Shown here: positions 7,800 through 44,029 of the stretch, in pieces
Position numbering within the stretch: position 1 is the first letter of the stretch
How the letters are laid out: the number at the start of each line of letters is the position of its first letter
Notes under the pieces: generated by a model
Database searches by the model: none
Told to the model about the DNA's origin: nothing
The model's input: the letters and a program-made list of their open reading frames with translations, nothing else
Source of the DNA: Terriglobia bacterium
Lineage (GTDB): Bacteria; Acidobacteriota; Terriglobia; 2-12-FULL-54-10
Length of the DNA: 64,000 nt
Direction: 5' to 3'
Assembly (NCBI GenBank): GCA_963666975.2
Contig: CAXVYR010000003.1
Location: forward strand, 736,001 to 800,000
Program-made: the position numbers and the translations under genes

Positions 7800-7835
7800 A
7801 ATTCGGCCGGCAGGAAAAATGGACGGCGGGGGCCC

Positions 7836-8597
7836 ATGAAGATCGACATACTCACAATTTTTCCGGAATTTTTTGCCGGGCCCTTTCAGCATGGAATCCT
7901 CCGCCGGGCGCAAGAAACCGGCCTGGTAAGCATTGAGACACACGATCTGCGGCGATTCACAAATGACCGTCACCGCACAGTGGACGACCGCCCCTTCGGA
8001 GGGGAAGAGGGGATGCTCCTGCTTCCCGAACCTTTCTTTCGGGCGGCTGAGCACATCTGGGAGCGCGGCAGGCCGCGCGGCAGAGTGATCCTGCTTTCGG
8101 CGCAAGGCAAACTGTTTCGGCAGCCCATGGCGAGCGAGCTGGCCAAAGAAGAGTCTTTGATGCTACTCTGCGGGCGCTATGAGGGAGTGGATGAGAGAGT
8201 CGCGTCGCACTTGGCGGAGGAAGAACTCTCCATCGGCGACTTTGTGCTGAGCGGAGGAGAATTGGCCGCTGCGGTGGTGGTGGACGCGGTAACGCGGCTG
8301 CTGCCCGGAGCGCTGGGCAACGCGGCCTCGTCGGTGCGGGAATCCTTCGCGGTGACTCCCGGCACGAGAAGCGCGGGGCTGCTCGACTGTCCCCAATATA
8401 CCCGTCCGGCAAAGTTCCGGGAGATGGCCGTTCCCGACGTACTGCTCTGCGGAGATCACAAGCGCGTGGAGCAGTGGAGACGCAAAAAGGCTTTGGAGAA
8501 AACCTGGGCGAACCGGCCGGATTTGTTGTCCGGGGCTGCCCTGAATGCAGAACAGCAACAGTGGCTGGCAGAGATCGAAAAGGAAACAGAGATATGA
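7836..8597 (+). CDS. trmD: tRNA (guanine-N1)-methyltransferase TrmD
   Basis: [35 protein letters not shown]. Confidence 0.98.
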
Positions 8598-8938
8598 ATC
8601 GATTGGACAAGTTGCACAGTCTGGAGCCCCGCCGGGAGGTCGCCGAGTTTGCGCCCGGCGACACGGTGCGGGTCCAGGTAAAAATCAAAGAAGGCGAGAA
8701 GGAACGGTTGCAGGCGTTTGAAGGCACCGTCATCGCGCGCAAACACGGCGGCCCCAGCGAGACATTCACCGTCCGCAAGATCAGCTTCGGCCAGGGCGTG
8801 GAGCGGATCTTTCCGGTGCAATCGCCCGTGATCCACCGCGTGGAAGTGCTCCGCCGGGGTCGCGTGCGCCGCGCCAAGCTGTATTACCTGCGCAAACTGC
8901 GAGGCAAGGCCGCCCGCATTCGCGAGAAGCGATCCTGA
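8594..8938 (+). CDS. rplS: 50S ribosomal protein L19
   Basis: [33 protein letters not shown]; ATG overlaps trmD stop (ATGA). Confidence 0.98.
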
Positions 8939-9074
8939 ACCTTCCCTTCCCCCGCTGCTTGCCGGCAGAAAGCGCAAACGGCGGTCTCTGTCAGCGCAAA
9001 GCCCGGTTTGGAGATGCTCCGCAGAAAGGAGCGCAAAGCATATTCGCTGCGGCACGAAATTTGAGCGCCAGGGA

Positions 9075-26174: not shown

Positions 26175-26977
26175 ATGAATTCGCACGGAAAATCCTGGAC
26201 GGCACTGCTGCTTCCGGCAATGTTTCTAGGGATGGCGATTCCGTCCGCGGCACAGTCCCAGTTTCCCGATGGGAAGGGGAAAGAGATTGTCGAGATGGTG
26301 TGCAGTCAGTGTCACGGCCTGAATCACGTCTCGGACTCAAGGCGAACCCAGGAAGAATGGGAAAGCGTGGTCAGCGACATGGTTGCACGCGGAGCGCCCT
26401 TGCTGGTCGATGAAATCGATACCGTGTCGGAATATCTGGTCAAGAATTTCGGTCCGCAGAGCCCCCCAGAGCTGCTTCCCAGAAAGCTGCTAGTGCAAGC
26501 GCGGCAACCACGCTGTCGGAAAGCCAGGGAAAAGAGATTGTCGAGACGGTATGCACGCAGTGCCACGGTCTGAATACCATTTCCAGTGCCGGGTACCGTT
26601 CCAAGGAAGAATGGGAAGGTGTGATCAGCGACATGATCTCCAGGGGCGCGCCCTTGCTGGACGATGAAATGGACACTGTAGCCGAATATCTGACCGCAAA
26701 TTTTTCCCCGAAGGCATCCTCCGGCAGTTCCGCGAGCGCTTCCGGCCAAGGTGCGGCCAATACAAACTCGGCAGCCACATTGCCCGAGGGCAAGGGGAAA
26801 GAGATCGTCGAGATGGTCTGCAGCCAGTGCCACGGCCTAAATAACGTGGCCGGTTCGCGACGAACCAAGGAAGAATGGGAAAGCGTAGTCAGTGACATGG
26901 TCGCCAGAGGCGCTCCCTTGCTCATCGATGAAATTGACCTTGTCACGGAATATCTGGCCGAGCATTGGGGGCCTTAA
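26175..26977 (+). CDS. Periplasmic tri-domain cytochrome c (three CxxCH repeats), frameshift near 26460-26500
   Basis: Signal peptide; three ~65-aa repeats G.GKEIVE.VC(S/T)QCHGLN...EEWE.V.SDM..RGAP; repeat 1 is in a different frame from repeats 2-3. Confidence 0.85.
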
Positions 26978-27093
26978 GCAGCAAGCCCCAGCCGCTCTGC
27001 TCAGATTGCCATAGCGGCTCGAGCGAGGATATTCAGAAAATATCTTCTGGGAATCATGGTTCATTCGGTGGATTTGCTTTAAGGAGAGTGCGT

Positions 27094-28989
27094 ATGAGAA
27101 AACTCGTCCAGGACCTTGTAACTTCCAAGCTTTCCCGGCGCGGCTTCCTCGCCAGCATGGTGGCGGCTGGTTACACCCTTTCTGCTGCCCAATCGGCCCT
27201 GCAATCGGTCTCGCCGTTTGTTCCCGGGGCCCACGGAGCCGAGACCGCTGAGTCCTTCACCCGCTCTGTGACCGGCACAGGAGGCGACCTGATGGTCGAG
27301 CAGATCATTGAGGCGGGCGCCCGCTACCTGTTTGTCACCAACGGCTCCGGCCTCGGCCCGCTGTGCGACGCCCTGGTCACACGTCCCCAGATTCAGCTGA
27401 TCCAGGCCGTCCACGAAGGCCAGGCCGTGGCGATGGCTGACGGTTACGCCAAAGCCTCCGGCAAGATCGGCTTTGGGATGTACAGCCGCGTCGGGCTGCC
27501 CAACTCCTCCTCCAACATGTACAACGCCATGAAGGACCGCACCCCGCTGGTGCTGCTCAGCGATCACGCCGATTCGACCAGCGAAGGGACTGACAGTCAC
27601 GAGGACCTTTACGATTTCCTGGAACCGGTGAAGCAATTCACCAAGTGGCGTTGGGTGACACACGAGGCAAGCCGGATCCCGGAATGGATACGCAAAGCTT
27701 GCAAGGTATCCACGGTCCTGCCCGGAGGCCCCACCTATGTTCGTTTTCCGCGCAACCTGCTGTACCGGGAAAACGTAACGGCGCCGGTCTTTGCGGGCGA
27801 AGCTTTCCACATCCCAATGGATCTTCGGCCGGACAAAAAGCAGGTAGAGCGCGCCGCGAAAATGCTTCTGGAAGCCTCTTCGCCGCTCTTCTATGTCGGG
27901 CGGGAGGTTACACAGACCCATGCCCGCGCATCACTGGTGGAGCTGGCCGAGCTGCTGGCCATCCCGGTGGTCCAAGGCAGAAGTTACTGCGCGGATTTTC
28001 CAAACTTCCATCCGCTCCACGTCGGTGAACTGCGCACGACGCGGATTCCCAAGCAGGCCGATTGCCTCGTCAATTTCGGCGCCCGTTTCCGCCCGCGGGA
28101 AAGAAGATTCCTCAATCGGATTCCCACTGTGATCCACGCCACCGTGGAGCCAGAGGTGCTGGGCCGCAACACCGCGCTGCAGGCGGGGTTGGTCGGCAAT
28201 ATCGACATGGTGGCGCGCGACCTGATAGACGCCGTAAAAAGCATGGCAACGCCACAAAAACTGAAGGAACGTACGGCGGAGCGCCGGGCGGAGATCTCTT
28301 CCTACACAAAACGCCTGCGGGAGGCGCGCATTTCCTTGGCGCGCCGCAGCACGGGCAAGCAGATCCCCTGGCAGCGTCTCATGGTCGAACTGAACGATTT
28401 ACTCGACCCCGACGCCGTGATTATTCCCGAAATCGGCTCCGACGAAAAGTTTCTCAATTTTTTCACCTTCGCCGACGATGCGAAATTAAAGGTCGGCCGC
28501 ACCGAGGGAATGGCGCTCGGATGGGGCATGGGAGCTTCGGTGGGCGTCAAGCTCGCGCTTCCCAACCGGCAGGTCGTCACCATCCAGGGAGACGGCGGTT
28601 TCCTGTTCGGGCAGACCGATGCCTTGTGGACGATGTCCCGCTACGACGTGCCGGTGCTGACGGTCATCGCGAACAACCAATGCTACGAGGCTACGCGCCA
28701 CCGGATCATGGGCCGCGGAGGAGCCGCGGGGAAAGCTCAACGTGACTATATCTCCTACCTGGGCGACCCGGAAGTCGACTTCACCCAACTGGCGGCAGCC
28801 TACAAAATCGGCGGCGAGATCGTGCACAACACCGACCAGTTGCGCCCGGCCATCCAGCGGGGCATCCGCGCACTCCGCGACGGACGCCCCTATTTGCTGG
28901 ATGTCCGCGTTCAGACCATAGGAGTCGGCGCCGAGCTTTCCTGGTATCCCGATTTCTCGCTGGCAGAAACCCGGGAACAGAAGGTATAA
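27094..28989 (+). CDS. Thiamine-diphosphate-dependent enzyme with Tat signal (benzoylformate decarboxylase/acetolactate synthase-like), paralog 1
   Basis: SRRGFL; HEGQAVAMADGYAK; QGDGGFLFG...ANN ThDP motif; SD AAGGAG. Confidence 0.88.
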   Translation: MRKLVQDLVTSKLSRRGFLASMVAAGYTLSAAQSALQSVSPFVPGAHGAETAESFTRSVTGTGGDLMVEQIIEAGARYLFVTNGSGLGPLCDALVTRPQIQLIQAVHEGQAVAMADGYAKASGKIGFGMYSRVGLPNSSSNMYNAMKDRTPLVLLSDHADSTSEGTDSHEDLYDFLEPVKQFTKWRWVTHEASRIPEWIRKACKVSTVLPGGPTYVRFPRNLLYRENVTAPVFAGEAFHIPMDLRPDKKQVERAAKMLLEASSPLFYVGREVTQTHARASLVELAELLAIPVVQGRSYCADFPNFHPLHVGELRTTRIPKQADCLVNFGARFRPRERRFLNRIPTVIHATVEPEVLGRNTALQAGLVGNIDMVARDLIDAVKSMATPQKLKERTAERRAEISSYTKRLREARISLARRSTGKQIPWQRLMVELNDLLDPDAVIIPEIGSDEKFLNFFTFADDAKLKVGRTEGMALGWGMGASVGVKLALPNRQVVTIQGDGGFLFGQTDALWTMSRYDVPVLTVIANNQCYEATRHRIMGRGGAAGKAQRDYISYLGDPEVDFTQLAAAYKIGGEIVHNTDQLRPAIQRGIRALRDGRPYLLDVRVQTIGVGAELSWYPDFSLAETREQKV

Positions 28990-29063
28990 CCGGAACAAAT
29001 TGAATTCGGACCTGTTCGGGCGCGTTGTCAGCAGGTTCACCCCATGCGGCAAGGAGCATCTTT

Positions 29064-30947
29064 ATGAGAAAACTCGTCCAGGACCTTGTAAATTCCAAGC
29101 TTTCCCGGCGTGGCTTCCTCGCCAGCATGGTGGCGGCTGGTTACACCCTTTCCGCAGCCCAATCGGCCCTGCAATCGGTCTCACCGTTCCTTCCCGGAGC
29201 CGAAGCCGCTGAGTCCTTCACCCGCTCTGTGACCGGCACAGGAGGCGACCTGATGGCCGAGCAGATCATTGAGGCGGGCGCCCGCTACCTGTTTGCCACC
29301 AACGGCTCCGGCCTCGGCCCGCTGTGCGACGCACTGGTCACACGTCCCCAGATTCAGCTGATCCAGGCCATCCACGAAGGCCAAGCGGTCTCGATGGCCG
29401 ACGGTTACGCCAAAGCCACCGGCAAGATCGGCTTTGGGATGTACAGCCGCGTCGGGCTGCCCAACTCCTCCGCCAACATGTACAACGCCATGAAGGACCG
29501 CACCCCGCTGGTGCTGCTCAGCGATCACGCCGATTCGAGTAGCGAGGGAACCGACAGCCATGAGGACCTTTACGATTTCCTGGAACCGGTGAAGCAATAC
29601 ACCAAGTGGCGCTGGGTGGCACACGAGTCGAGCCGGATACCGGAATGGATACGCAAGGCCTGCAAGGTCTCCACGGTCCTGCCCGGAGGCCCCACCTATA
29701 TTCGCATTCCGCGCAACCTGCTGTATAAACCAAACGTAACAGCATCGGTCTTTGCGGGCGAAGCTTTTCATATCCCGATGGAGCTGCGGCCGGACAAGAA
29801 ACAGGTGGAGCGCGCCGCGAAACTGCTTCTGGAAGCCTCTTCCCCGCTCCTCTACCTCGGACCGGAGGTGAGCCAGACCAACGCCCGCGCGTCGCTGGTG
29901 GAGCTGGCTGAGTTGCTGGCCATCCCGGCGACGCAAGCGCGGAGCTTTTACGCGGATTTTCCGAACTTCCATCCGCTCCAAGTCGGGGAATACGGCCGCA
30001 CGATGCGGTATCCCAAAAATGTTGATTGCTTTGTCAATTTCGGGGCACGCTTCGGGGGCCGGAGCAGGCTTCCCGAGGGGATCTCCATCATACATGCCAG
30101 CGTGGAGCCGGAGGCGCTAGGACGCAACACCCCGGTGCAGGTGGCGCTGGTGGGCCATCTCGACCATGTGGCGCGCGACCTCGTCGAGGCTGTAAAGAGC
30201 ATGGCGTCGCCGCAGAAACTGAAGGAACGCACGGCTGAGCGCCGGGCGGAGTGCGCCTCCTACACGAAGCGCATGCGGGAGTCGCGCGTCACCCTGGCCC
30301 GCCGGGCCAGCGGCGACCCGGTGCCCTGGCAGCGGCTCATGGTCGAGTTAAACGACCAGCTCGACTCCAACGCCGTCATCGTCGAGGAGTTGGGAACGGA
30401 GGGCAAAGTCCTGAACTTTTTCTCGTTTGCCGATGATGCCAAGTTAAAGATCGGACGCACCGAGGGACGGTCTCTCGGCTGGGGCGTGGGAGCTTCGGCC
30501 GGGGTCAAGCTCGGCCTTCCCAATCGCCAGGTCGTCTCCTTGCAGGGAGACGGCGGTTTCCTGTTCGGCCAGACCGATTCCCTGTGGACCATGTCCCGCT
30601 ACGACATTCCGGTGCTGACCGTCATCACAAACAACCAGGGCTACGAGGAGCCTCGCTGGAACATGATGAACCCGCGACGACGCGCAGGAAAAGCCGGACG
30701 CGACTATATCGGCTACCTGGGAAATCCGGATATCGATTTCACGAAGCTGGCGGCGGCATACAACATCGGCGGCGAAGTCGTGCAAAACACCGATCAGTTG
30801 CGCCCGGCCATCCAGAAAGCCCTCCGCGCGCTCCGCGACGGACGACCCTACTTGCTGGATGTGCGCATCTTGAGGACCGGCACCGGCGCTGAGGTTTCTT
30901 GGTATCCCAAATTTTCGCTGGCCGAGCACCGGGAGCGAAACGTATAG
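29064..30947 (+). CDS. Thiamine-diphosphate-dependent enzyme with Tat signal, paralog 2
   Basis: SRRGFL; HEGQAVSMADGYAK; QGDGGFLFG...TNN; 5' third nearly identical to paralog 1. Confidence 0.88.
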   Translation: MRKLVQDLVNSKLSRRGFLASMVAAGYTLSAAQSALQSVSPFLPGAEAAESFTRSVTGTGGDLMAEQIIEAGARYLFATNGSGLGPLCDALVTRPQIQLIQAIHEGQAVSMADGYAKATGKIGFGMYSRVGLPNSSANMYNAMKDRTPLVLLSDHADSSSEGTDSHEDLYDFLEPVKQYTKWRWVAHESSRIPEWIRKACKVSTVLPGGPTYIRIPRNLLYKPNVTASVFAGEAFHIPMELRPDKKQVERAAKLLLEASSPLLYLGPEVSQTNARASLVELAELLAIPATQARSFYADFPNFHPLQVGEYGRTMRYPKNVDCFVNFGARFGGRSRLPEGISIIHASVEPEALGRNTPVQVALVGHLDHVARDLVEAVKSMASPQKLKERTAERRAECASYTKRMRESRVTLARRASGDPVPWQRLMVELNDQLDSNAVIVEELGTEGKVLNFFSFADDAKLKIGRTEGRSLGWGVGASAGVKLGLPNRQVVSLQGDGGFLFGQTDSLWTMSRYDIPVLTVITNNQGYEEPRWNMMNPRRRAGKAGRDYIGYLGNPDIDFTKLAAAYNIGGEVVQNTDQLRPAIQKALRALRDGRPYLLDVRILRTGTGAEVSWYPKFSLAEHRERNV

Positions 30948-31979: not shown

Positions 31980-32135
31980 AGAGCCGCGCGCCTGTCCCGC
32001 CTGCCCTGAGCATAGCCGAAGGGAGTGAAGCCGAGGGATCAGCAAGCGGTCGCCGAACGCCCGGTGCGCAAACAAAGCTGGGTTGACCGCTCCATTACTG
32101 TCCCATTCGGCAAGCTCAGGGCAGGCGCGGCTCGG
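31980..32135. repeat. Nested palindromic REP-like element between convergent genes
   Basis: CCTGCCCTGAGC..GCCGAA...TTCGGCAAGCTCAGGGCAGG inverted pair inside GAGCCGCGC/GCGCGGCTC. Confidence 0.5.
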
Positions 32136-32179
32136 ATGGATTCACCAACAATACACTTTACACCAATCCAGAAACCGCC

Positions 32180-34447
32180 CTAAAAGATCTCCGGGAAATA
32201 ATAAGTCAATATGGTATTCAGCCGCATATCGGCCACAATGAGTTCCTTGTTCTTGGGATTCAAGGCCACTCCGCGCGGCTTCTTCAGCAGGCTCTTCGGC
32301 CCCCCGATCTTCCAGCGGGGCGGCACGTCGCCGCTGTCGTTGATACTCCAAACGCCAACAAAAATTTCCTCCTCCGGCTCCATACCGCTGCCGCCGGGCT
32401 GAGCCGCGACAATCCAGCCTTTCGGAGAATATATTTGGAGCTGATTAATGCGAGTAATGGCGGTCTGGGGACCATCGATCACGGTACGCGGCTTCACATT
32501 CCCTTCGTCTGTGCGGTTAAACGTAAACAGAGCCCGGCCTACGCTGGTCACAATCACATTATGGACCGGATCAACGGCCAGCGTGGAAGTCCGCAATCGG
32601 GTATCCGGCCCTTGGATCACACGGATCGGAGCCACATCGCCATTGCCTTCCCGGGGGAAAACCAGAATCCGGTCCACCGAGGGCACGAAGATTTCATTGT
32701 GCACCGGATCAACATCCACCCGGTCCGGCCGCTTCAACTGTGTACTGGGGCCTTGGATGACCCGGATCGGAGGCTCCTCGCCATCGGCTCCTCCGCGGAA
32801 AACCAGGATCGCCTGTGCAAAGGGGTTGGTTACGATGAATTCATCATGAACCGCGTCATAGCGAATGTCGTGCATGGTACGGCTTAAAAGAGTCTTTTGT
32901 CCGGCAATCAGTCTGGTGGGCACCGCATTCTCCTCCGCCATCCTGGCGAAGGCCGCAATCTGCGGGTGGGCCACTCAGTTGGGCACCAGGATTTCCTCCC
33001 GCTTGCTGTCGTAGCCCGCAGCTCCTGGGTTCCCGATAGCCAGCGCCTGTTTGCCGAGCGGCGCGCTGCGGATGGTCCGCAGCGGCGCGACATCCCCGTT
33101 AGCCGCACGCGGAAAAACGGTGGCCGAATGGTTCCCCATGTTGGATACCCACATCTCATCGTTCTTCAAGTCCACAAAAATGCCGGTGGGGTTCTTGATA
33201 CCGGTCTTGGGCCCCTTGATGACCCGGGTGGGCGCCACGTCACCGCTGTCGGTCATACGAAAGACCAGGACCGAGTCGTCGGCGTCATTGGCGACGTAGA
33301 GTTCTCCGCGCTCGGAATCGACAAACATCGCCGCCGGCCAGTTCAGCTGGGTTTCAGGACCTTCAATCACCCGTAGCGGCGGCGTATCTCCCTCCGCTTT
33401 GATCGAATAGATGGAAATCGAAGGAGGATCAGACTGGCCGGAACCGCGTAGCGCACGGTCCCGGTCGAGCGGCCAATTTTCTTTGCGCTCCCTCCTTTGG
33501 GTAGGAAGTCCCGTTACAGCAATGTCTCCCTGGTCCGGACCCACATCGGGACGAACCTGATGGACTGAACCATGATTGCTGACAAACATCCAGTTATTCT
33601 TCGAGTCCACCGCAATGCCGTGCGGGTCTTCGAGTTCCGTCCGGTCGCCTTGCAGCAACCGCAGAGGCGCTTCGTCGTCCGCGGCCATCTTGTTGTACAC
33701 CACGACTGCGTTGTCGTGCTGGATCGTGAGGAACAACTCCTGATTTTGTTCATCGACAGCGATCCCGAAGGTCCCATGCGGCGTGGCCAACTCCCTTTTG
33801 GGCGGCACGTTCCCCCGGGCTTCGCGCCCGAAGATAACCAGCGTATTGACCGTGTCGTTGTTGACCGAATAAACATCTCCCGTATTCTGGTCCAAATACA
33901 GCCCGCAGTTGAACTCAAGCTTGGTCCGCAGTCCGCCCACCATGCGCTTCGGCTCGGTCATGGTGGCGTTGGGAGGAGTATTGTCCAGCCGGTTGAACAC
34001 CTTAAAACCGAACAGGTTTTCATCCTGCAGATAGACCTCGTTCGTATTGACGTCCACTGCCACGGCGCTGTAGGTGGGATAGGTGTCCCGGATCATCCGT
34101 ATCGGTTCCCGGTCGGCATCGACGGCAGGCCTGTCCTCATCGAGCGCCGGCGCGCTCCTGTTTGCCGCCATTTGCTCCTGCTGCAGCGCGGCCACCAGCG
34201 TGGTGTTCGTGCTGGCCGGCACCCACTGGCACATCTCCCCGCCCATCATGCCGTCTGCCATGGGCATGGGGTCGGAGGAAACCAGTTGGGGATACCCTGT
34301 GGGTCTGCGCAAGGCGGCCTCGGATGCCGCGCTCCATTCCCGCTGTTTCGCCTCCCCGGTAAACAGCACCCATGCGGCAACGGCAATTACCAGAGAGATC
34401 ACCGCAGTCACGCTGATTTTTTGTACCACGCACGATGCTCGGGCCAT
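32180..34447 (-). CDS. Exported NHL-like multi-blade beta-propeller protein, putative selenoprotein (UGA 32975-32977 = residue 491 of 755)
   Basis: ORFs 32975..34477 and 32180..32974 abut in frame; TGA falls mid-blade (YDSKREEILVPN*VAHPQIAAF); downstream hairpin; same TGA in the paralog; SD GGAGG before ATG 34447. Confidence 0.85.
32932..32952 (-). promoter_or_regulatory. Putative bacterial SECIS hairpin (paralog 1)
   Basis: mRNA CCUUCGCCA-GGA-UGGCGGAGG; loop starts 32 nt after UGA and begins with GG. Confidence 0.75.
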
Positions 34448-34505
34448 ACGAATTTCGCCTCCTTCCAAATCTGCCACTAAACGGAAACAGTTCGGCTGCT
34501 ATAAC

Positions 34506-34633
34506 AGGTTGTTGAAAAACGCCATTTGCCCGCTCCCTCACGGTCGCGGCTCGGAATGGGCGTGCTGATCTGGCTGCATTTGCCGAGCCGCGCGCGTTAG
34601 CAAGCGGACCCTGCACCAGTTTTTCAACAACCT
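34506..34633. mobile_element. MITE-like element with 15-bp terminal inverted repeats and internal REP-like palindrome
   Basis: AGGTTGTTGAAAAAC ... GTTTTTCAACAACCT, between the two propeller paralogs. Confidence 0.65.
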
Positions 34634-34723
34634 CCTCAACGAAAGGCAAACAGCCGGGCTGTGGAAGCCTTGTGCCAGGCCTCCTGCCGGACTGCTTGCC
34701 AGAACAATCAAAGGACAATCAAA

Positions 34724-36949
34724 CTAAAATATTTCCGGAAAGTAATACGTTAACACGCTGTTCAACCGCATGTCGGCCACAATGACTTCTTTGTTCTTGG
34801 GGTCCAGCGCAATCCCCCGCGGCTTCTTCAGCATGCTCTTCGGCCCGCCGATCGTCCAGCGGGGCGGCACGTCGCCGCTGTCGTTAATGCTCCAAATACC
34901 GACAAAGACGTCTTCGGGCTCCTGTTCCGAGCTGAGGCCGGGCTGGGCCGCAATAATCCACCCTTTCGGCGGATAGACCCGAAGCTGGTTGATACGGATG
35001 ATGCGGGTCTTGGGGCCCGAAATTACGGCTTTCGGCTTGACGTTGCCATTGGCGGTGCGGTCGTAAATCAGCAGCGCCCCCGGAGGGCTGGTCCCGCCCC
35101 GGTGCTGGATTCCAACGATCAGCAAATCGTGGACCGGATCAATGGTCACTCCGCCGGTGTTCTTCAGCATCGTGTCAGGGCCGCGCAGCACCCGGATGGG
35201 AACCGTGTCGCCGTTCGCTTCCCGGGGATAGACCATCACCCGGTCGCTTTCGGGAATGTAGATTTCGTTGTTCACAGGATCAATCCCCAGGCGGTCCGGC
35301 CCATCCATCATGGTGCTGGGGCCCTGGATCACGCGCAGCGGAGGCTCCTCGCCGTCGGCTCCTCCCCGGAAGGTCAGCACGGCTTGCGCAAAGGGATTGG
35401 TGACGACGAACTCATCATGGATGGCGTCATAGGCGATGTCGTGCATGGTGCGCGCCAGCAGCGTCCGCTGCCCGGCCAGCAGTCGCGTAGGCTGCGTATT
35501 CTCCTTCCCCAGCCTGGGGAAGCTCGCAATCTGCGGATGGGCCACTCAGTTGGGCACCAGCACTTCTTCCCGCTTGCTGTCATAGCCCACCGCTCCCGGA
35601 TTCCCGATAGCCAGCGCCACCTTCCCTAGCGGGGCGCTGCGGATGGTGCGCAGCGGCGTCACGTCGCCGTTCGCTGTGCGGGGGTAAACCGTGGCGGAGT
35701 GGTTGCCCATGTTGGAGACCCACAGCTCATTGTTCTTGAAATCGACAAAAATCCCCGTGGGATACTTGATTCCAGTCTTCGGTCCCTTGACAATCCGCGT
35801 GGGCGCCACATTGCCGCTGTCGGTGGTGCGGAAGACCAGGATTGAATCATCGGCGTCGTTGGCGACGTACAGATCGCCGTTTTCCTCGTCCAGGTACATC
35901 GCCGCCGGCCAGTTCAACTGCGTTTGGGGACCCTCAATGATCCGAATGGGGGCCGTATCACCTTCCGCCTTCAGCGGATGAACCGTGATCGAGGGCGGCT
36001 GAAACTCGCCGGAGCCGGAAACCCTGCTGGCGTCCCAAAACCCGGTGGAGTTGTCAAAACCGGGGCTGTAGCTGACGCTGCCGTGGTTGGCCACAAACAT
36101 CCAGTTGTTCTTGGTGTCGATAGCAATGCCGTGAGCGTCTTCGAGCTGTGTACTCTTCCCTTCAAGCGTCCGAATCGGCTCTTCCCTGCCCTCGGCCATC
36201 TTGCGGTACACCACCACCTTGGGCGGGTGCTGCACGGTGAGGTACATCTCTTCGGCGCCCTCATCCACGGCGATGCCCCAGGTCCGGTGCGGAGTTCGCA
36301 ACTCGCGCTTGGGAGGCACGTTTCCGCTGGCCTCGCGCCCGAAAATCACCAAGGTGTCCACCGTGTCGTTGCTCACCGAGTAAACGTCGCCGCTTTTCGG
36401 GTCCACATAGAGTCCGCAATTAAACTCGAGCTTGGTGTTGATGCCTCCCACCATGCGCTTCGGCTCCGTCATGGTGGCGCTGGGCGGAGTGTTGTCCAGG
36501 CGGTTGAATACCTTGAAGCCGAACAGGTTCTCGTCCTGCAGATAAACCTCATCGGTGTTGGTATCGACGGCGACGGCGGCGTAGGTGGGGTAGGTGTCCC
36601 GAATAATTCGCGCCGGAGCGCGGTCCGCGTCGATGGTGGCGCCGGGGTCGACCGAGGTGCGGGCCTCGCCCTGCGGATGCCGCAGCGCGGCCAGCATAGT
36701 AATGTCGCCAGAGGTGGTATCGGCGCTGGCCGGCACCCACTGGCACATCTCCCCATTCATCCCCGGCATTTGCTCATAAGCAACCAATTGGGGATACCCT
36801 TTGGGCCTGCGCAGAGCAGCCTCGGATGCTGCGTACAACTGGGGCCGCTTTGCCTCACCGGCAAACAGCACCCAGGCAGCAGCGGCGGCCACCAAGCACA
36901 GCAAAGCCAGCAGGCTACTGCTCGGTCGCAAATGGAATCCTCGGTGCAT
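34724..36949 (-). CDS. Exported NHL-like beta-propeller paralog, putative selenoprotein (UGA 35546-35548 = residue 468 of 741)
   Basis: ORFs 35546..36964 and 34724..35545 abut in frame (REEVLVPN*VAHPQIASF); SD GGAGG before ATG 36949; both paralogs end TYYFPEIF. Confidence 0.85.
35504..35522 (-). promoter_or_regulatory. Putative bacterial SECIS hairpin (paralog 2)
   Basis: mRNA CUUCCCCA-GGC-UGGGGAAG; same +32 loop position; G-C to C-G and U-G to U-A changes versus paralog 1. Confidence 0.75.
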
Positions 36950-37010
36950 TGATACCTCCGTCAATGACGAGCATGAATACCCACAGCAGCTTCTACGGCG
37001 CGGTTTTGAT

Positions 37011-37500
37011 CCTAGGAATAAACTTTTTGGCCTCCAGGCAGTTGAAAGTGTACATCCATTTGCATCCTACCGAGCACAACTTTTCCTCCGAGAGGGCCAT
37101 CGGCTCCCAGCCTCCCTTTCCGGATCCCCCAAAACCGTCCAATCAGCATCCAGAACCAGCTTTTTCAGACAACTCTCCATACCTGGGGGATAGCGGCATC
37201 GTTTTCTTGTGTGCCGTAGCCCCGGCTATCCCGACGGGAGCGACAGCCCATCTATTCGCCCCAGCATGCTAGCAAATAAACGTCTCGTCAGATGGCTCTC
37301 TGCCAGCAATAGCCAATAGTAGCGGGCATGCTTAATCAGGCGTCCTCCTCACCAGCCGCTGCTGGAGGCTCGTCAAGGACCAGTTCCCGATTCTCTGTGG
37401 CACCACCAGCCGCCGCCAGCAGACGGCAATGATGGTCAGCCACATAGTTGGAGCGGAACCGATGGTCGCCAGACTGCTCTGCCGTCCCGGCTTATTATGG
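37011..37500 (-). mobile_element. IS1380 3' end and degraded transposase fragment
   Basis: ~37225-37345 is nearly the exact reverse complement of ~22450-22570; flanking pieces show multiple deletions. Confidence 0.75.
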
Positions 37501-37504
37501 CTCG

Positions 37505-37850
37505 ATCGGCGCTGGCCGGCACCCACTGGCACACCCGTCGGGCCGTCTTCTCCCCATTCATCCCCGGCATTTGCTCATAAGCAACCAATTGGTAAACCTC
37601 CGCTTGGCAAAGGCCGCGTCAGCCCGAAACGCGATACCCTTTGGGCCTGCGCAGAGCAGCCTCGGATGCTGCGTACAACTGGGGCCGCTTTGCCTCACCG
37701 GCAAACAGCACCCAGGCAGCAGCGGCGGCCACCAAGCACAGCAAAGCCAGCAGGCTACTGCTCGGTCGCAAATGGAATCCTCGGTGCATTGATACCTCCG
37801 TCAATGAGAGCATGAATACCCACAGCAGCTTCTACGGCGCGGTTTTGATA
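37505..37850 (-). repeat. Duplicate of the 5' end/upstream region of propeller paralog 2 (~36720-37010), interleaved with IS1380 pieces
   Basis: ~37633-37850 is nearly identical to ~36793-37010; short IS-derived inserts such as GGCAAAGGCCGCGTCAGCCCGAAAC. Confidence 0.8.
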
Positions 37851-37918
37851 GCTTTGATGCCAATTTTATCACAGGAGTTGACCCGCCCTGCGGGCTTTAT
37901 TCACTGGCCCTGCTAGCG

Positions 37919-37983: not shown

Positions 37984-38410
37984 CTAGAAGATAAACTTCA
38001 AGCCAAACTGAATCTGCCGGGCCGAGGTGCGGGTGTCAAAAATCCGGGCCGCGTCGGCGTCCACTAAGCCCTCCTTCACGAGGTCCTTCCCTGCTGCGCG
38101 CGCCGCTGCAACATCTTCGGCGCCGGCGCCGAAATCAAAAGGATCCATAAATTTTCCACTTTCCGTCCCACCGAAATTGGGCCGGTTGAACAGGTTGAAG
38201 AACTCCGCCCGGAATTGGATCCGGGTGTTTCCCGTCACCTCGAAGTCCTTGAGGAACGACAGATCGAATGTAGCTATGCCCGGGCCGGTCACAGTGTTTC
38301 TGCCCGCAGTGCCGAAAAATCCCAGCTTGGAGGGGGCGAACTGGCTGATGTCATAGTACCGGTCCGGGCCGCCCAGCACCGGGTTGTTATCACCGCCCTT
38401 GACAAAAGCA
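37984..38410 (-). pseudogene. C-terminal fragment of an Acidobacteria-type TonB-dependent receptor
   Basis: GRNTVTGPG..FDLSFLKDF...IQFRAEFFNLFNRPNF...RQIQFGLKFIF; 5' part replaced by an IS1-like fragment. Confidence 0.85.
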
Positions 38411-38808
38411 AGGCTTGGCATTGGAATGAGGTGTGGCGCGCCTCGGAGAATTCGCGGAAGCTAAATACTTCCTACATCGAACGTTTGAACCGGACCATCC
38501 GGCAGGGCCCTGCCTACCTCGGGCGTCGGACCCTCAGCCACGCTCGGCGTTCTCGGCGGCTGGAAGATCATCTCGAGCTGCTGCGACGCCATGACAACTT
38601 TCGCAGGCCTCATCGTGCTCTGAAGTTTGGACACGAAGTCAAAACCCCGGCGATGCAGGCAGGCCTGACCCAAAAGCGGCTGACGTTCCGCGATGTCTTC
38701 ACGTCCATCCCAAACTTTTTGTGCTTGGTCAGGACCGTCTGTGTGTTCATCTTCCACGCGAATTCGCCCGGCCGGGAAGACTCGCCGATTTCAGGGGCTG
38801 CTTAACAA
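38411..38808 (+). mobile_element. IS1-like transposase 3' fragment
   Basis: NTSYIERLN.TIRQ...RPH.AL...TPAMQAGL; near-identical inverted copy at ~55472-55870. Confidence 0.7.
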
Positions 38809-38902: not shown

Positions 38903-39631
38903 TTAGTGCTGCCGGTGGACTTCCGTATGGTCGATTGTCCCGTCGCGGAACTGAAGGACGATGTCGCCTCGGGCACCGACGGCCGGATCGTGCGTCGCGA
39001 TAAGGACGGTCTTTTTGAAGCCATGTGCCAGGGAGACGAGCAAGTCGGTCAGGATCATCGCGTTCTTGCTATCCAGGTTGCCCGTCGGCTCGTCGGCGAG
39101 AATCAGCATGGGGTCGTTCACGAGGGCGAGCGCCGCCGCTACCCGTTGCTGCTCGCCGCCGCTTAATTCGTCAGGGCGCTTCAGAGCTTTCTTGTCCAAA
39201 TCGACAAGCTTCAGCAGGGCGTGGGCGCGCTCGACTCGGTCGCGATGCTTCATTCCTGATACCGTCATAGGGAGCTGTAGATTGTCCAACGCGTTGAGCC
39301 CTGGGATCAGGTTGAACGCCTGGAAAATGAAACCAACCTCCTCCAGGCGGTAGCGCGCCAAATCGCGCTCCGTGATGTTGCCGTTGAGCTGCCAGTTGCC
39401 CACCTGGATCTTTCCGGAATCAGACCGGTCGATGCCCCCCAAGAGATTCAAGAAGGTCGTCTTTCCACAACCGCTCGGCCCCTGGATAATCATCACGGCG
39501 CCTCTGTTGACGTCGCAAGTGACGCCCTGTAGGGCCTGATGTGTCTCCTCCCCAGTCCGGTACGTCTTCACAACGTTTTCTACACTGATGTCCAGGCCTT
39601 CCTGTTTGAATAAATTGGTGTGTAATGTCAT
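38903..39631 (-). CDS. ABC transporter ATP-binding protein (LolD/MacB type)
   Basis: GPSGCGKTT, LSGGEQQRV, LADEPTGNLD, ATHD. Confidence 0.93.
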   Translation of the reverse strand: MTLHTNLFKQEGLDISVENVVKTYRTGEETHQALQGVTCDVNRGAVMIIQGPSGCGKTTFLNLLGGIDRSDSGKIQVGNWQLNGNITERDLARYRLEEVGFIFQAFNLIPGLNALDNLQLPMTVSGMKHRDRVERAHALLKLVDLDKKALKRPDELSGGEQQRVAAALALVNDPMLILADEPTGNLDSKNAMILTDLLVSLAHGFKKTVLIATHDPAVGARGDIVLQFRDGTIDHTEVHRQH

Positions 39632-39638
39632 GATGCCT

Positions 39639-42600
39639 CTATCGCTCTTTAATTGCTTCCCGCGCCGTCTTGCGGACCGGCCATAAGCCGAATCCGACCG
39701 AAATCGCAGCCAGAACTACGGTGAACACGAGGACACTGGCCGCCGCCGCCAGAGTCAAAACGAGACGGTTTGAGAGTAACCCCGCCACTCCGAGGACACG
39801 GGGGAGATCCCAGATTGCCTGCGACAGCCCGTAGCCGGAGATGATGCCCAGGAGAACTCCCATCGCCAGCCCTGCCAGGACCGGTGTGAGAAACATGGCA
39901 ATGGAAATTCGCAACAACATCGAGATCGGCACGCCGCGCAAGCGCAGCAGGCCGAACGTCAGCCGATCGGCTAAAAAGTTGGCGAAGCCAATCGCGCTCA
40001 CACTCGCTAGCGCGAGGATGAGCCCGCCGAACATGAACACCTTCATATTTTCCAAAGCGAGCGAAATGAACATGTCCTTGCCGACCCGCTGGCGCTCCGC
40101 GGCTTCCCATCGGACCCCTTGCGGACGCATCGGAAGCTTTTCAGTAATGTCCGCAACGAACTGATCATCTACCTCGCCGGACCGCGTGCGGACCACGAAC
40201 ACCGATCGTGAGGGCAGCACGGCAAGTCTCGCCAGCCCGGTCCGCGCGAATTCTGCGCTGGTAATCATACGGGCATCCGACCGCAGCATGTAATTGAGAT
40301 AATCCACTTCAGCGGAGACGAATCCCTCGCGATCAGACACGCCTGTGGACGGCTGGCCGGGCAGAAACGCCACGACATCGCGGAATTGTACGGGCATCGG
40401 CGTCTCGCTGCCATAGCCCAGAATCACATCGCGGTCGAGTGGGATTTTCCGCAGTCGCAGCAATCCTTGGGAGGCCGTAACCGTGGTGTCCGTTAGGCCA
40501 TCGATAATCTGGCGGAACGGACGTGTCAGGCCGAGAGTTTCTTCGTAGTACACCGTGTTAATGTAGTCCTGGGGCATGTCCACAATGTTCAGAATGAGGC
40601 CACTCTGTCCCGGAATGTAAACGCCGGGAACGACGAACTGCTGAATGGTAGTGACGGAGGACACTCGCGGGTCGCTTTGCAGCACCTCCTTGATGGAAGC
40701 TATCGCCGTCGCCACCGTGCGTTCGTATTCGGCGATGGTCCGTACTGTCGCTTCGCCATCGCTGAGCTCGGTCATGTTGTATTCAATATGCAGGTCACCG
40801 CCAACAGACACCCGAATACCGCGAAGGACGCGACCGTAGAACGTGTCAGCGGCAACCTGTGGCAATAGCGTGATCGCCATCGCGAGCGCCGCGACGAACA
40901 GCACTGCGACGACGCGACCCCTGCGGAGCGCCATGTGCTGTCCCACGAACCAGCGCAAGCTGCCGACCAACGGCACCGTGATCGCACTCAGCCCCTCTTG
41001 GATCCACCTCACACGCCAACTGAACAGACCGGTAAGGCCGAAGAGAAATAGCGGCACAGCGATGAAGTTTAAGACGATTTCGCTGATGAACAAAACCGGC
41101 ACCAGCGATTCACGGGTTGGTCCTATCCAGCGTGCGGCCAGAGAGTAGCCCGCAATCCACGATGCCACCTTGTAACCGCCGAGAATCAGAGCGAGGAAGC
41201 TCGTTACGATGTACGCCCTCGACATTCGGGTGGCGCGCTCCTCGACGTCCGTGCCGAGCACGCGGGTCAGGGCCTCGCGTGGAGTCATCCGCCGCACATA
41301 CCGCAGAATCGTGTAGCCCGACAGCAGAGCGAAGAAGACGCCCAGGATCACAAACCCTGCGAAGAACACCAAGCCCCGCACGAAAACCGGCATCGTTGGC
41401 ATTAAGTGTCCTGCGAGACTGTATCCGATGATGGGAACGAGCGTCCCGAGAAAGAGTCCGACTAAGCTGCCGGCTAACCCTCCGGCGAGCAGGGCGAGCA
41501 GAAGTGTGCTCGACACGGCGTTCATCGGTATTCCTCGGACCAATGCGAGACCCACCATGCGACGCTCGTTCAAGATCAGCAGACCGCTCAAGTTTCGTGC
41601 CAGCACCCAGCCGAGCCACAAAAGCGGGACGGCAACGAGTACCGTCACTAGTTGAACGAGCCGGGCATTGGCGCTCATGCGCTCTAAGGCGTTTTTCAGG
41701 TCGCTATTGACATAAGCGAACGGCGTGAGCTGGTGGGCGGTCTCCTGCACCGTACTGACCAACGGCTCCACTCTGGCAAGGCTTGCATCGAGCTCCCAAG
41801 GGGAGACCCAGCGAGACCGATCGACGGCGAGTAAGTGCGATACTTCGGGAACATAAGGAGGCGGTGCTTCGCCGCCGTGGATACCTTCGGAGGAGAGAAA
41901 CATCTCGCCCATCTGATTTGCTAGATTTGCGAATACATCCAGGGGCAGGGAAATCACAATCGCTTCTTCGGGCAGGTAGGTCAGGGACCCGACTTCCCGC
42001 AGCATCCACTTGTTAAATTCCTGTCGCTCAAGCTGAACCGGCGGCGTCATTACAGAGGCCTGAAAAAGCGTCTGGCCGCCCCCGATAGGCACAAGGTGAT
42101 CCCCTGGGCCGTGATCGTGATCATGCTCTTCTTCAACTTCTCCAATCACGGCAAGGCGCACCGAACTGCCTGCCCGCACACGTTTACTGGCCTCAAATAC
42201 TTCGGTACCCCGGCCTGCGCCGCGTTGGGCTGCAACAAGAGCAAGCTGGTAAGGGACGGGCGCCGTGCCAGGGCTGGTGCGCCGCAATTCTGGTGGAAGT
42301 AATTCCGTCTGGGATGCCGCGATAAAAGCCACCCAGCGAACAGGAAACTCTGCCTGATCAATCTCGATCCGGAGCGGGCTCGTGTTGCGCACCCGCAGGA
42401 ATCCGATATTTTCAAGCCGCTGGATGCCCTCCAGCCGCTCCAGACTTTCGCGCATTTCTATAAACCGATGCGCCTCGCCTCGCTGCACAACCGAGATGTC
42501 CCACGGCATTCGCTGGAGTTGATCTGTAACGTAGCCTTCGATGGCATATCCTGATGTCAGGTACAGCGACGCCAGAATGGCAACCGACAGCATCGAGACG

Positions 42601-42656
42601 CTTCCGTAAACGAAGAAAACCCTCTTGCCTAGAACACGGAACAAAAACCAGCGCAT
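39639..42656 (-). CDS. Large duplicated FtsX-like ABC permease
   Basis: 1005 aa, two large soluble domains each followed by TM clusters; His-rich EEEHDHDHGPGDH loop; adjacent ATPase. Confidence 0.75.
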   Translation of the reverse strand: MRWFLFRVLGKRVFFVYGSVSMLSVAILASLYLTSGYAIEGYVTDQLQRMPWDISVVQRGEAHRFIEMRESLERLEGIQRLENIGFLRVRNTSPLRIEIDQAEFPVRWVAFIAASQTELLPPELRRTSPGTAPVPYQLALVAAQRGAGRGTEVFEASKRVRAGSSVRLAVIGEVEEEHDHDHGPGDHLVPIGGGQTLFQASVMTPPVQLERQEFNKWMLREVGSLTYLPEEAIVISLPLDVFANLANQMGEMFLSSEGIHGGEAPPPYVPEVSHLLAVDRSRWVSPWELDASLARVEPLVSTVQETAHQLTPFAYVNSDLKNALERMSANARLVQLVTVLVAVPLLWLGWVLARNLSGLLILNERRMVGLALVRGIPMNAVSSTLLLALLAGGLAGSLVGLFLGTLVPIIGYSLAGHLMPTMPVFVRGLVFFAGFVILGVFFALLSGYTILRYVRRMTPREALTRVLGTDVEERATRMSRAYIVTSFLALILGGYKVASWIAGYSLAARWIGPTRESLVPVLFISEIVLNFIAVPLFLFGLTGLFSWRVRWIQEGLSAITVPLVGSLRWFVGQHMALRRGRVVAVLFVAALAMAITLLPQVAADTFYGRVLRGIRVSVGGDLHIEYNMTELSDGEATVRTIAEYERTVATAIASIKEVLQSDPRVSSVTTIQQFVVPGVYIPGQSGLILNIVDMPQDYINTVYYEETLGLTRPFRQIIDGLTDTTVTASQGLLRLRKIPLDRDVILGYGSETPMPVQFRDVVAFLPGQPSTGVSDREGFVSAEVDYLNYMLRSDARMITSAEFARTGLARLAVLPSRSVFVVRTRSGEVDDQFVADITEKLPMRPQGVRWEAAERQRVGKDMFISLALENMKVFMFGGLILALASVSAIGFANFLADRLTFGLLRLRGVPISMLLRISIAMFLTPVLAGLAMGVLLGIISGYGLSQAIWDLPRVLGVAGLLSNRLVLTLAAAASVLVFTVVLAAISVGFGLWPVRKTAREAIKER

Positions 42657-42699: not shown

Positions 42700-44029
42700 C
42701 ACTGCTGTCCGGCTAAAATTTCAGAACAGCCAACAAGTCTCATGAGAGCAAAAGGTTACGGGCATTGGAGCATTTTTCGATTTGAAATCCGCGAGGGCGA
42801 AAAATGGCTTTGAACGTAAAGACTGGGGTAGGCGACAGAATAGTGCATGAACATCGGTCGCACCGTTTTCGCTCAGCTTATGGATCACGTGCCCTCGTAC
42901 GAGTTTCACAAATGCGTCACGCGCTACCGTGGCGACGATCACCTGCGAAGCTTTTCTTGCTGGGACCAGTTTCTGGCGATGGCGTTCGCTCAGTTGACTT
43001 ACCGCGAGAGTCTCCGCGACATCGAGGCGTGTCTGCGTTCCATGACCAGCAAACTCTACCACATCGGATTGCGCGGCAACGTGGCGCGCTCGACACTGGC
43101 CGATGCCAACGAGTCGCACGACTGGCGCATCTACGCGGACTTCGCCCAGGTGTTGATCGGCATCGCACGGCCTTTGTATGCGCGCGATCCGATCGGCGTC
43201 GATCTGGATCAGAGCCTGTACGCGCTGGACTCCACCACCATCGACCTCTGCCTCTCGCTGTTTCCGTGGGCACGATTCCGCCAACACAAGGCTGCCGTCA
43301 AACTGCATACGCTGCTGGACCTGCAGGGCAACATCCCCACGTTTCTCCGCGTCACGGCCGGTGCCGTGCACGATGTCAACATCCTCGACGAGATCGTTCC
43401 GGAAGCGGGCGCGTTCTACGTGATGGATCGCGGCTACATCGACTTCGAGCGACTCTTTGTCTTCACACTCTGCTCCGCATTTTTCGTCGTGCGGACGAAA
43501 GAGAACGTCTTGCTCCAACGCCGCTATTCTCATCCAGCAGACAGAACCAGCGGCTTGCGATCCGATCATACCGTGATCCTGACCGGGAACGCCTCGGCCA
43601 GGGCATACCCCGATCCGCTACGGCGCGTTACGTACTTCGATGCAGAAACAAACAAGCGCCTGAAGTTTCTTACCAACAATTTCGTGCTACCCGCACTCAC
43701 TATCGCTCAAATCTACAAGTGCCGCTGGCAGGTGGAACTGTTCTTCAAATGGATCAAGCAGCACCTGCGAATCAAGGCATTCTATGGCACCAGCCAAAAC
43801 GCAGTGAAGACTCAAATCTGGATCGCCGTTTCGATCTATGTACTCGTGGCCATTGTCCGGAAGCGTCTCGCTTTGGAAGCCAGCCTTTACCAAATTTTAC
43901 AGATTCTCAGTGTTACTCTTTTCGAGAAAGTGCCCATTTTACAGGCCCTGGAAGCATCGGGCTCCCAAGACGATTTAGTCAGAAATCCCAACCAGTTGAT
44001 TCTGTTCGAGTTTTAACCGGACAGCAATG
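42700..44029 (+). mobile_element. Complete IS4-family element with 9-bp target duplication
   Basis: IRL CACTGCTGTCCGGCTAAAA, IRR (rev-comp) CATTGCTGTCCGGTTAAAA; TSD ACATAATAT at 42691-42699 and 44030-44038. Confidence 0.93.
42847..44016 (+). CDS. IS4-family transposase (DUF4372-type N-terminus)
   Basis: LDSTTIDL, MDRGY, YKCRWQVELFFKWIKQ (YREK motif). Confidence 0.95.
   Translation: MNIGRTVFAQLMDHVPSYEFHKCVTRYRGDDHLRSFSCWDQFLAMAFAQLTYRESLRDIEACLRSMTSKLYHIGLRGNVARSTLADANESHDWRIYADFAQVLIGIARPLYARDPIGVDLDQSLYALDSTTIDLCLSLFPWARFRQHKAAVKLHTLLDLQGNIPTFLRVTAGAVHDVNILDEIVPEAGAFYVMDRGYIDFERLFVFTLCSAFFVVRTKENVLLQRRYSHPADRTSGLRSDHTVILTGNASARAYPDPLRRVTYFDAETNKRLKFLTNNFVLPALTIAQIYKCRWQVELFFKWIKQHLRIKAFYGTSQNAVKTQIWIAVSIYVLVAIVRKRLALEASLYQILQILSVTLFEKVPILQALEASGSQDDLVRNPNQLILFEF

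Follow-up and report, generated by a model that had tools for sequence, protein, structure and literature searches.

An in-frame UGA in two tandem propeller genes of a Terriglobia bacterium, a probable selenocysteine codon in a new acidobacterial protein family

Here, two tandem paralogous genes, referred to as A and B, were analyzed in a 64,000-nt stretch of DNA (the window) from a Terriglobia bacterium, which corresponds to positions 736001-800000 of contig C3 in a 4.23-Mb genome of four contigs that is 98.9% complete. Each gene appears as two open reading frames (ORFs) separated by an in-frame TGA, and each such pair is very probably one gene whose internal UGA is a codon for selenocysteine (Sec). 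Taken as a whole, the observations are with high probability best explained by single Sec-containing two-propeller proteins made via recoding at a selenocysteine insertion sequence (SECIS), because the genome carries the Sec machinery, relatives show either TGA or Cys at the site, and a hairpin downstream of the codon is tied to the copies with TGA. Judged from sequence comparison, the genes would represent a new, many-copy selenoprotein family of Acidobacteria, for which the recoding mechanism would be canonical.

The UGA site in the two genes and their relatives

Both paralogues lie on the minus strand, and plus-strand translation of the given coordinates yields nonsense. The first-pass annotation of this DNA had the coordinates and the in-frame layout of TGA followed by GTG right; the strand has to be amended. 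In paralogue A, an ORF of 500 codons (34477..32975, minus strand) closes with the TGA at plus-strand positions 32975-32977, and an ORF of 264 codons (32974..32180, minus strand) starts with the GTG that is the codon right after this TGA, in the same frame. Paralogue B, the upstream copy, consists of the ORFs 36964..35546 and 35545..34724 (minus strand) and is split identically by the TGA at 35546-35548. Read through the TGA, A is 765 and B 746 codons long when counted from the earliest possible start, and 755 and 741 residues when counted from the first ATG, the latter being the lengths proposed before. The tandem paralogues are 69% identical, and the site reads ...EILVPN-U-VAHPQIAAFAR in A and ...EVLVPN-U-VAHPQIASFPR in B. 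Two DNA-type runs, each from a separate study, yielded contigs that cover both genes and both TGA codons with zero differing letters; these contigs break at 32960-32981 and 35531-35554, where the depth rises about ten-fold, which would be expected if many paralogues have this stretch in common.

All four genes of the Sec machinery were found in the genome above curated cut-offs. The tRNA-Sec gene selC was recovered with Rfam RF01852 (72.8 bits) and by ARAGORN as tRNA-SeC with the anticodon TCA, and selA, selB and selD scored 563.5, 371.8 and 349.5 bits against cut-offs of 267.9, 242.25 and 125, respectively. The selD gene (C4:1360322-1361257) itself contains one in-frame TGA and therefore probably encodes the Sec form of selenophosphate synthetase. 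Nine copies of the propeller family occur in this genome, and each has TGA at the site (nine further matches of the search expression were unrelated by context); in eight of the nine, the frame is open for 419-500 codons ahead of the TGA and for 264-281 codons behind it. Three of the own-genome paralogues use TGA as their terminator, and TGA is therefore not reassigned genome-wide; the neighbouring ORFs of the window are of normal length under translation table 11.

For the comparison with other genomes, 91 related loci were assembled, 11 from a scan with paralogue A (one genome per species) and the best 80 of 144 stretches from a scan with an alignment of Cys-form relatives. Nearly all are labelled as metagenome-assembled genomes (MAGs) of Acidobacteriota (Terriglobia, Solibacteraceae, Bryobacteraceae, Sulfopaludibacter, Vicinamibacterales and Luteitalea), one is labelled Planctomycetota, and in other genomes, too, there are several family loci per MAG. 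Tabulation with a regular expression gave 111 matches in the 91 loci, namely 100 TGA, 10 TGC and 1 TGT. Two matches (L100:301 and L094:6424) were dropped for their unrelated context and two loci (L032 and L097) lack the site, so that the genuine sites amount to 99 TGA and 10 Cys codons (n = 109), in frame, with fixed spacing and with coding conservation on both sides. TAA or TAG was not seen at the site, the expression being able to match only Cys codons or TGA there.

Protein databases are in line with this pattern. Paralogue A had 6532 matches at E ≤ 0.001, 872 of them at E ≤ 1e-30, in a library of 1.84 billion representatives; among the best 150 of the 6532, the matched stretch ends right at query residue 500 in 26 cases and sets in at residues 502-504 in 11, a pattern that gene callers leave when they cut the proteins at TGA. 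Database homologues aligned across the site carry Cys in 20 of 20 cases. A further alignment, of 63 full-length proteins from databases, has Cys at the position in 62 rows and Trp in one (P0155); the first-pass annotation had named Trp at this position as evidence against Sec, and its test thus came out in favour of Sec in all rows but that one. The residue in homologues is accordingly encoded by TGA or is Cys, as was anticipated for a Sec position. A FastTree phylogeny of the C-terminal domain was built from 109 rows (49 Sec, 59 Cys, 1 Trp) with the site masked, with FastTree support only and without an inferred root; 50 locus rows were omitted, in which the read-through of TGA overran the ends. 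On this tree the Sec and Cys forms interleave, with 14 changes, at least 10 of them forced by well-supported branches, as compared to a mean of 36 in shuffles. Repeated exchange of Sec and Cys is a pattern of other selenoprotein families.

The same data bear on the possibility that the genes are pseudogenes or products of sequencing errors, that is, two decayed copies that share a nonsense mutation by chance. One of the nine own-genome copies (C4:2004188, about 7285-9034 of locus L115) does look broken: only 30 codons are open before its TGA, a 290-aa ORF lies just ahead, and this copy may be frameshifted or decaying. By contrast, 99 copies from many MAGs carry this TGA with conserved coding sequence to either side of it, contigs of two studies show it without a differing letter, and the other eight own-genome copies are open apart from it. 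This explanation is therefore of negligible probability and for practical purposes refuted by the comparative data, as foreseen by the argument that two independent errors at one codon are unlikely, which is now extended to the 99 related and all nine own-genome copies and is matched by the DNA contigs.

The hairpin downstream of the UGA

The first-pass annotation had pointed out that UGA is decoded as Sec with the help of a hairpin just 3' of the codon, and such a hairpin, which fits the bacterial SECIS model and covaries, is present in both genes. In A and B it starts 22 nt past the UGA and has a stem of 8-9 bp, the loop A-GG-A/C-U and its apical loop 30 nt past the UGA; from A to B, one G-C pair becomes C-G and one G-U pair becomes A-U. 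In an alignment of 14 copies (13 distinct), 97.1% of the cells are paired and both-sided changes occur in three of the eight pairs, and the covariation score of 0.292 compares with 0.180 in shuffles, none of 500 shuffles being as high. When the 3' arm was slid by 1-3 columns as a control, pairing fell to 36-67%, and RNAalifold independently recovered the same hairpin stem.

Among the 99 Sec copies, which hold 50 distinct hairpin sequences, all eight pairs are present in 76, seven in 20 and six in three, and the mean minimum free energy (MFE) is -13.5 kcal/mol, whereas the 10 Cys copies have 2-7 pairs and just one of them reaches seven. The Arg codon that is the source of the loop GG is AGG in 91 of the 99 Sec copies (CGG or CGT in the other eight) but in none of the 10 Cys copies, where it is CGC in five, CGG in two and not an Arg codon in three. 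As background, AGG accounts for 10 of the 99 Arg codons in both window genes and for 10 of 237 in five neighbouring ORFs. Since the hairpin and AGG occur in the Sec copies and not in the Cys copies, the hairpin is coupled to the TGA and not to the amino acid sequence.

In all respects the hairpin agrees with the model of bacterial SECIS elements (bSECIS) given in a 2026 review (PMC13188914, section 5), namely an apical loop of 3-9 nt, a stem of 4-16 bp, a distance of 16-37 nt from the UGA, an MFE ≤ -7.5 kcal/mol and a G in the first two loop positions according to the pattern N1-G-[G/U]-N-N2 with N1 and N2 paired. Here, the small apical loop is A-G-G-N-U, with GG at its start and an A-U closing pair, and the spacing of 30 nt lies within the 16-37 nt of the consensus. 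Rfam gave no match at E ≤ 1 over window positions 32000-37100. We propose that this hairpin would bind the complex of SelB, GTP and Sec-tRNA(Sec), and that the ribosome would insert Sec at the UGA instead of terminating. The product of about 750 residues would then consist of an N-terminal hydrophobic anchor or signal, a linker of about 60 residues with a conserved Cys and two six-bladed NHL-type propellers.

A split gene, in which translation ends at the UGA and begins anew at the GUG next to it (UGAGUG) so that two polypeptides assemble into the propellers, would agree with the GTG that directly follows the TGA in both window copies and in the 14 aligned copies, and with the two proteins that gene callers predict. 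This arrangement is nonetheless highly improbable: the break would land between strands B and C of one blade, the Cys-form relatives are continuous proteins, the genome maintains a full Sec machinery, and the association of the hairpin and AGG with TGA copies and their lack in Cys copies is not what a restart model predicts. Moreover, direct reading found no AGGAGG-like or other Shine-Dalgarno-like stretch ahead of the GTG in A or B, in keeping with the earlier remark that no properly spaced one precedes it.

Several observations weigh against Sec insertion at the UGA. The 99 TGA copies do not all count as independent events, since many are paralogues or belong to related MAGs. The window hairpins alone are unexceptional as compared to shuffles (63 nt; z of -1.56 and -0.32), and the case for the hairpin therefore rests on the comparison between copies. 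Furthermore, Cys forms, too, keep the amino acids encoded by the hairpin region (AAFARLA) fairly well, so that part of the nucleotide conservation is at the protein level. Contigs from two metatranscriptome libraries of one study match the N-terminal halves of the genes only (34019-34288, 35879-36039, 36341-36524, 36574-36727 and 36779-36996), four without a differing letter and the fifth (36779-36996) with a 1-nt gap at 36968; none bridges a TGA, and as DNA can occur in RNA libraries these contigs are a weak hint of transcription, whereas for the TGA sites and C-terminal halves their lack has no bearing on expression. Lastly, there is the Trp of the database relative P0155, which would favor the view that UGA is read here as a standard amino acid, Trp or Cys, by near-cognate read-through or under a reassigned code. 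P0155, however, sits beside paralogue B in a clade of the tree whose other eight members are all Sec forms, as expected of a gene caller that reads TGA as Trp, and because of this placement its Trp is most likely a TGA translated under another code. In addition, termination at TGA in three own-genome paralogues, the normal length of neighbouring ORFs under table 11 and the agreement of the hairpin with the SECIS model all speak against a standard amino acid, which is thus very unlikely, and we keep to Sec as the residue encoded by the UGA.

Propeller architecture and relation to known selenoproteins

The fold of the read-through protein was predicted for full-length A with AlphaFold2 from a 65-row alignment, and the fusion gave a high-confidence model of two propellers with a mean predicted local distance difference test (pLDDT) of 88 and a predicted template-modelling score (pTM) of 0.83. 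The model comprises an N-terminal helix (residues 22-56, of which 21-39 form the hydrophobic stretch), a low-confidence linker and twelve four-stranded repeats between residues 119 and 760. The last 309 residues folded alone reached a pLDDT of 94.1 and a pTM of 0.92. From the repeat count and from this independent folding of the C-terminal half, we infer that the protein would be built of two six-bladed NHL-type propellers. All matches in Pfam were weak: the NHL model (PF01436) scored above its gathering cut-off of 20, at 28.3 and 35.8 bits, Lactonase (PF10282) scored 26.7 and 25.8 bits against a cut-off of 21.7, aligning just about 90 residues, and Arylesterase was matched as well. The best structural match of the C-terminal domain was the NHL domain of TRIM2 (7qrv_A; VIA Z 29.3, root-mean-square deviation 2.5 Å, 262 residues aligned), along with Lin41, TRIM71 and Brat, followed by peptidyl-alpha-hydroxyglycine alpha-amidating lyase (PAL, 3fw0; Z 26.4) and by lactonases and SMP30-type enzymes (Z 21-25). 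Foldseek aligned this domain to 7b2r_B with template-modelling (TM) scores of 0.72/0.81, and with the full-length model it found only generic tandem WD40 double propellers at a TM score of about 0.3. A sequence-profile search of the PDB returned weak matches to NHL-repeat proteins and 6-phosphogluconolactonase (best E 1.2e-9) and no solved close relative.

In the AlphaFold model, the Sec position of A (U501) directly follows strand B (E495-499), ahead of strand C (E507-511), in the first blade of the second propeller, so that the TGA indeed cuts a blade in half, as the first-pass annotation had described. The B-C loops of propellers lie on the face where ligands usually bind. The stretch around Sec is rich in invariant residues (D490...R493...U501...P505...R522...R533...H536...D545-E546), and D490, R522, G526, R533, H536, D545 and E546 cluster near Sec. 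Since, with a single exception, all relatives seen have Sec or Cys here, Sec might be the reactive residue, redox or nucleophilic, of an extracytoplasmic enzyme or binding site. The linker of about 60 residues contains a Cys (Cys83, GEMCQW) kept in 60 of the 65 alignment rows, and a pairing of this Cys with Sec is speculative. The protein is probably exported or anchored outside of the cytoplasm, as suggested by the N-terminal hydrophobic helix in the window copies and in other own-genome copies. Of the exported double-propeller protein proposed at first, the two propellers are thus borne out by the model, and export is predicted from the helix. The features of both genes are collected in Table 1.

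Table 1. Position of the features of paralogues A and B in the window (plus-strand numbering).
Feature	Coordinates	Strand	Details
Paralogue A, whole gene including stop codon, one in-frame TGA	32180..34477	-	765 codons from GTG 34477, 755 from ATG 34447; read-through fold pLDDT 88, pTM 0.83
Probable Sec codon (UGA) of A, residue 501	32975..32977	-	Aligned column Cys in 20/20 database homologues; TGA in 99/109 related copies
Putative SECIS hairpin of A, 8-9 bp stem, loop A-GG-A-U, 30 nt past UGA	32932..32952	-	Comparison of copies and criteria of PMC13188914
N-terminal hydrophobic helix of A, residues 21-39, putative signal anchor or uncleaved signal peptide	34361..34417	-	Sequence; model helix H22-56
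Conserved Cys83 of A (GEMCQW) in flexible linker between anchor and propellers, speculative candidate partner of Sec	34229..34231	-	Cys in 60/65 alignment rows; low pLDDT
C-terminal six-bladed NHL-type propeller of A (model), residues 457-765, Sec in first blade	32183..33109	-	Folded alone pLDDT 94.1, pTM 0.92; VIA Z 29.3 to TRIM2 NHL domain; Foldseek TM 0.72/0.81
Paralogue B, whole gene including stop codon, one in-frame TGA	34724..36964	-	746 codons from TTG 36964, 741 from ATG 36949; 69% identical to A
Probable Sec codon (UGA) of B, residue 473	35546..35548	-	Minus-strand reading
Putative SECIS hairpin of B, loop A-GG-C-U	35503..35523	-	Relative to A, one G-C pair changed to C-G and one G-U pair to A-U
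N-terminal hydrophobic helix of B, residues 18-35	36860..36913	-	Sequence
Conserved Cys74 of B (GEMCQW), counterpart of Cys83 of A	36743..36745	-	Sequence, alignment

The genes resemble bacterial selenoprotein genes of the SelB/SECIS type, for which the formate dehydrogenases of E. coli are the paradigm, in the in-frame UGA, the intragenic 3' hairpin, the Cys homologues and the presence of selA, selB, selC and selD. The host protein differs from those of the paradigm, being a propeller and not a thioredoxin-fold protein, redox-motif protein or molybdoenzyme, and its motif, PN-U-V-x-H-P-Q, is unlike that of CxxU or UxxC selenoproteins; the absence of a CxxU motif had already been recognized in the first description of the PN-U-VAH loop. 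The C-terminal domain shares the fold of the six-bladed NHL propellers of TRIM2, TRIM71/Lin41, Brat and PAL (3fw0), but sequence identity to these proteins is 13-17%, and here two propellers are arranged in tandem behind a putative membrane anchor. The shared NHL fold does not imply a shared function, and to our knowledge none of TRIM2, TRIM71/Lin41, Brat and PAL is a selenoprotein.

Relatives bear lactonase- or YncE-type names in databases ('DNA-binding beta-propeller fold protein YncE', 'beta-propeller fold lactonase family protein', '6-phosphogluconolactonase' or 'hypothetical protein'), in line with the PF10282 match just above its cut-off. The sole matches in NCBIfam release 20, YncE NF052280 (22.3 against 400) and 6-phosphogluconolactonase NF008258 (22.2 against 370), are, however, far under the equivalog cut-offs, and the units are six-bladed and not seven-bladed according to the model. 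No selenoprotein family model of that release scored above its curated cut-off. Among the 120 matches listed none is named a selenoprotein, and the Sec forms among them are only truncated proteins of about 440-490 residues.

The first-pass annotation had cautioned that NHL-repeat proteins may already appear in lists of predicted selenoproteins, a concern that was not substantiated in the sources searched. The 2026 review (PMC13188914) presents its inventory as the most comprehensive; among the 119 prokaryotic families and subfamilies in its Table 1, none is entered as a propeller, NHL, lactonase or YncE protein or shows a PN-U-V motif, and none of these words occurs in the whole text. The words propeller, NHL and lactonase are absent from the main texts of the BSepDB and deep-Sep papers, whose supplements could hold the family under another name, and full-text literature searches found no paper on a bacterial propeller or NHL selenoprotein.

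Most catalogued bacterial selenoproteins are thioredoxin-fold or redox-motif proteins (PMC13188914, section 7). A probably extracytoplasmic beta-propeller that carries Sec within a PN-U-V-x-H-P motif would thus broaden the structural range of selenium use. Table 2 of an older survey gives four selenoproteins in three families for all Acidobacteria (PMC1794560), and for one acidobacterial test genome of the deep-Sep paper three selenoproteins were reported (PMC12013277, Table 2). The propeller family alone would add nine genes to a single genome of 4.2 Mb, and elsewhere a MAG holds several of its loci. Because its Sec forms appear only truncated and not named as selenoproteins, annotation pipelines would miss the whole family and under-count selenium use in these bacteria.

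Genomic neighbourhood, possible function and local repeats

The surroundings of the family genes offer a lead to their function. In the 91 loci, TonB-dependent receptor-like genes (CarboxypepD_reg plus OMP_b-brl_4) recur as neighbours, with 26 genes in 25 loci, 15 of them within 400 nt and 18 on the same strand, and Amidohydro_3 proteins are encoded by nine genes in eight loci; besides these two, no other neighbour recurred in the 91 loci. The 20 ORFs around seven other own-genome copies include amidohydrolases by three copies and DASS-type anion symporters by two, as well as single cases of a TonB-dependent receptor with a redoxin by one copy and of a DHDPS-family aldolase with a molybdopterin oxidoreductase by another, along with unrelated genes (AsmA, transposase, M23 peptidase and Fic). 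Two RraA-like aldolases adjoin one further own-genome copy. In the window, an Amidohydro_3 gene (24095-26005) and two thiamine pyrophosphate (TPP) enzymes (26965-30947) are convergent to the pair. The neighbours point, loosely and only as a lead, to the processing of imported small compounds: TonB-dependent receptor-like proteins, large Amidohydro_3 proteins, DASS anion symporters and aldolases would suggest small organic compounds taken up from outside.

That the protein is a Sec-reactive extracytoplasmic protein acting on such imported compounds is a tentative sketch. In the same vein, the family may possibly, though doubtfully, form a new class of extracytoplasmic selenoenzymes, with Sec on an NHL-type propeller that might cycle with the linker Cys (C-x-W) in a chemistry not yet linked to selenium, and with substrates imported via TonB-dependent receptors or anion symporters. 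Evidence against these functional proposals comes from the heterogeneity of the neighbours and from the lack of any match to a characterized enzyme beyond the shared fold; moreover, genes of the TonB-dependent receptor-like kind may just be common in these genomes. If a new selenoenzyme class with at least nine copies per genome were to prove true, acidobacterial metabolism would depend on selenium to a major, so far overlooked extent, and these bacteria would rank among those with the larger bacterial selenoproteomes. A cytochrome c partner, considered because the representative of a neighbour cluster of 34 members had a cytochrome c domain, was rejected: CxxCH occurs in one of the 34, and the members are antisense ORFs of the propeller genes.

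Just upstream of the pair, a 145-aa ORF (37984-38421, minus strand) matches only the last approximately 80 positions of the OMP_b-brl_4 outer-membrane barrel model and appears to be the C-terminal remainder of a TonB-dependent receptor-like gene, a type of gene that is found intact beside the family in 25 of the 91 loci. ORFs of 1005 aa (39639-42656, minus strand) and 282 aa (42721-43569, minus strand), which adjoin an ABC ATPase gene (38903-39631), had no Pfam match at E ≤ 0.001. A sponge-labelled metagenome run holds only a small share of the words and gives no evidence of habitat.

The 5' region of paralogue B is partly duplicated. Its promoter and 5' end (36719-37010) are repeated about 840 nt upstream (37505-37849) with 100% identity in four blocks of 175, 44, 42 and 29 nt and with two small insertions, resulting in a truncated second N-terminus. 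In two DNA-type runs, each from a separate study, one contig passes from 36792 straight on to 37633. There is thus also a form that lacks the 840-nt segment, and the duplication reflects either a polymorphism or the assembly. Between the repeat copies (37011-37504) lies a member of a dispersed repeat family of about 450 nt, for which no Rfam match (36900-37900, E ≤ 1), no clear terminal inverted repeats and no Pfam match for its ORFs were found. This repeat has 35 further blastn matches of 70-92% identity and up to 471 nt on contigs C2, C3 and C4 of the genome, its summed contig depth in the sequencing runs is 575-1490 as compared to about 9 for the genes, and it may be a non-autonomous mobile element.

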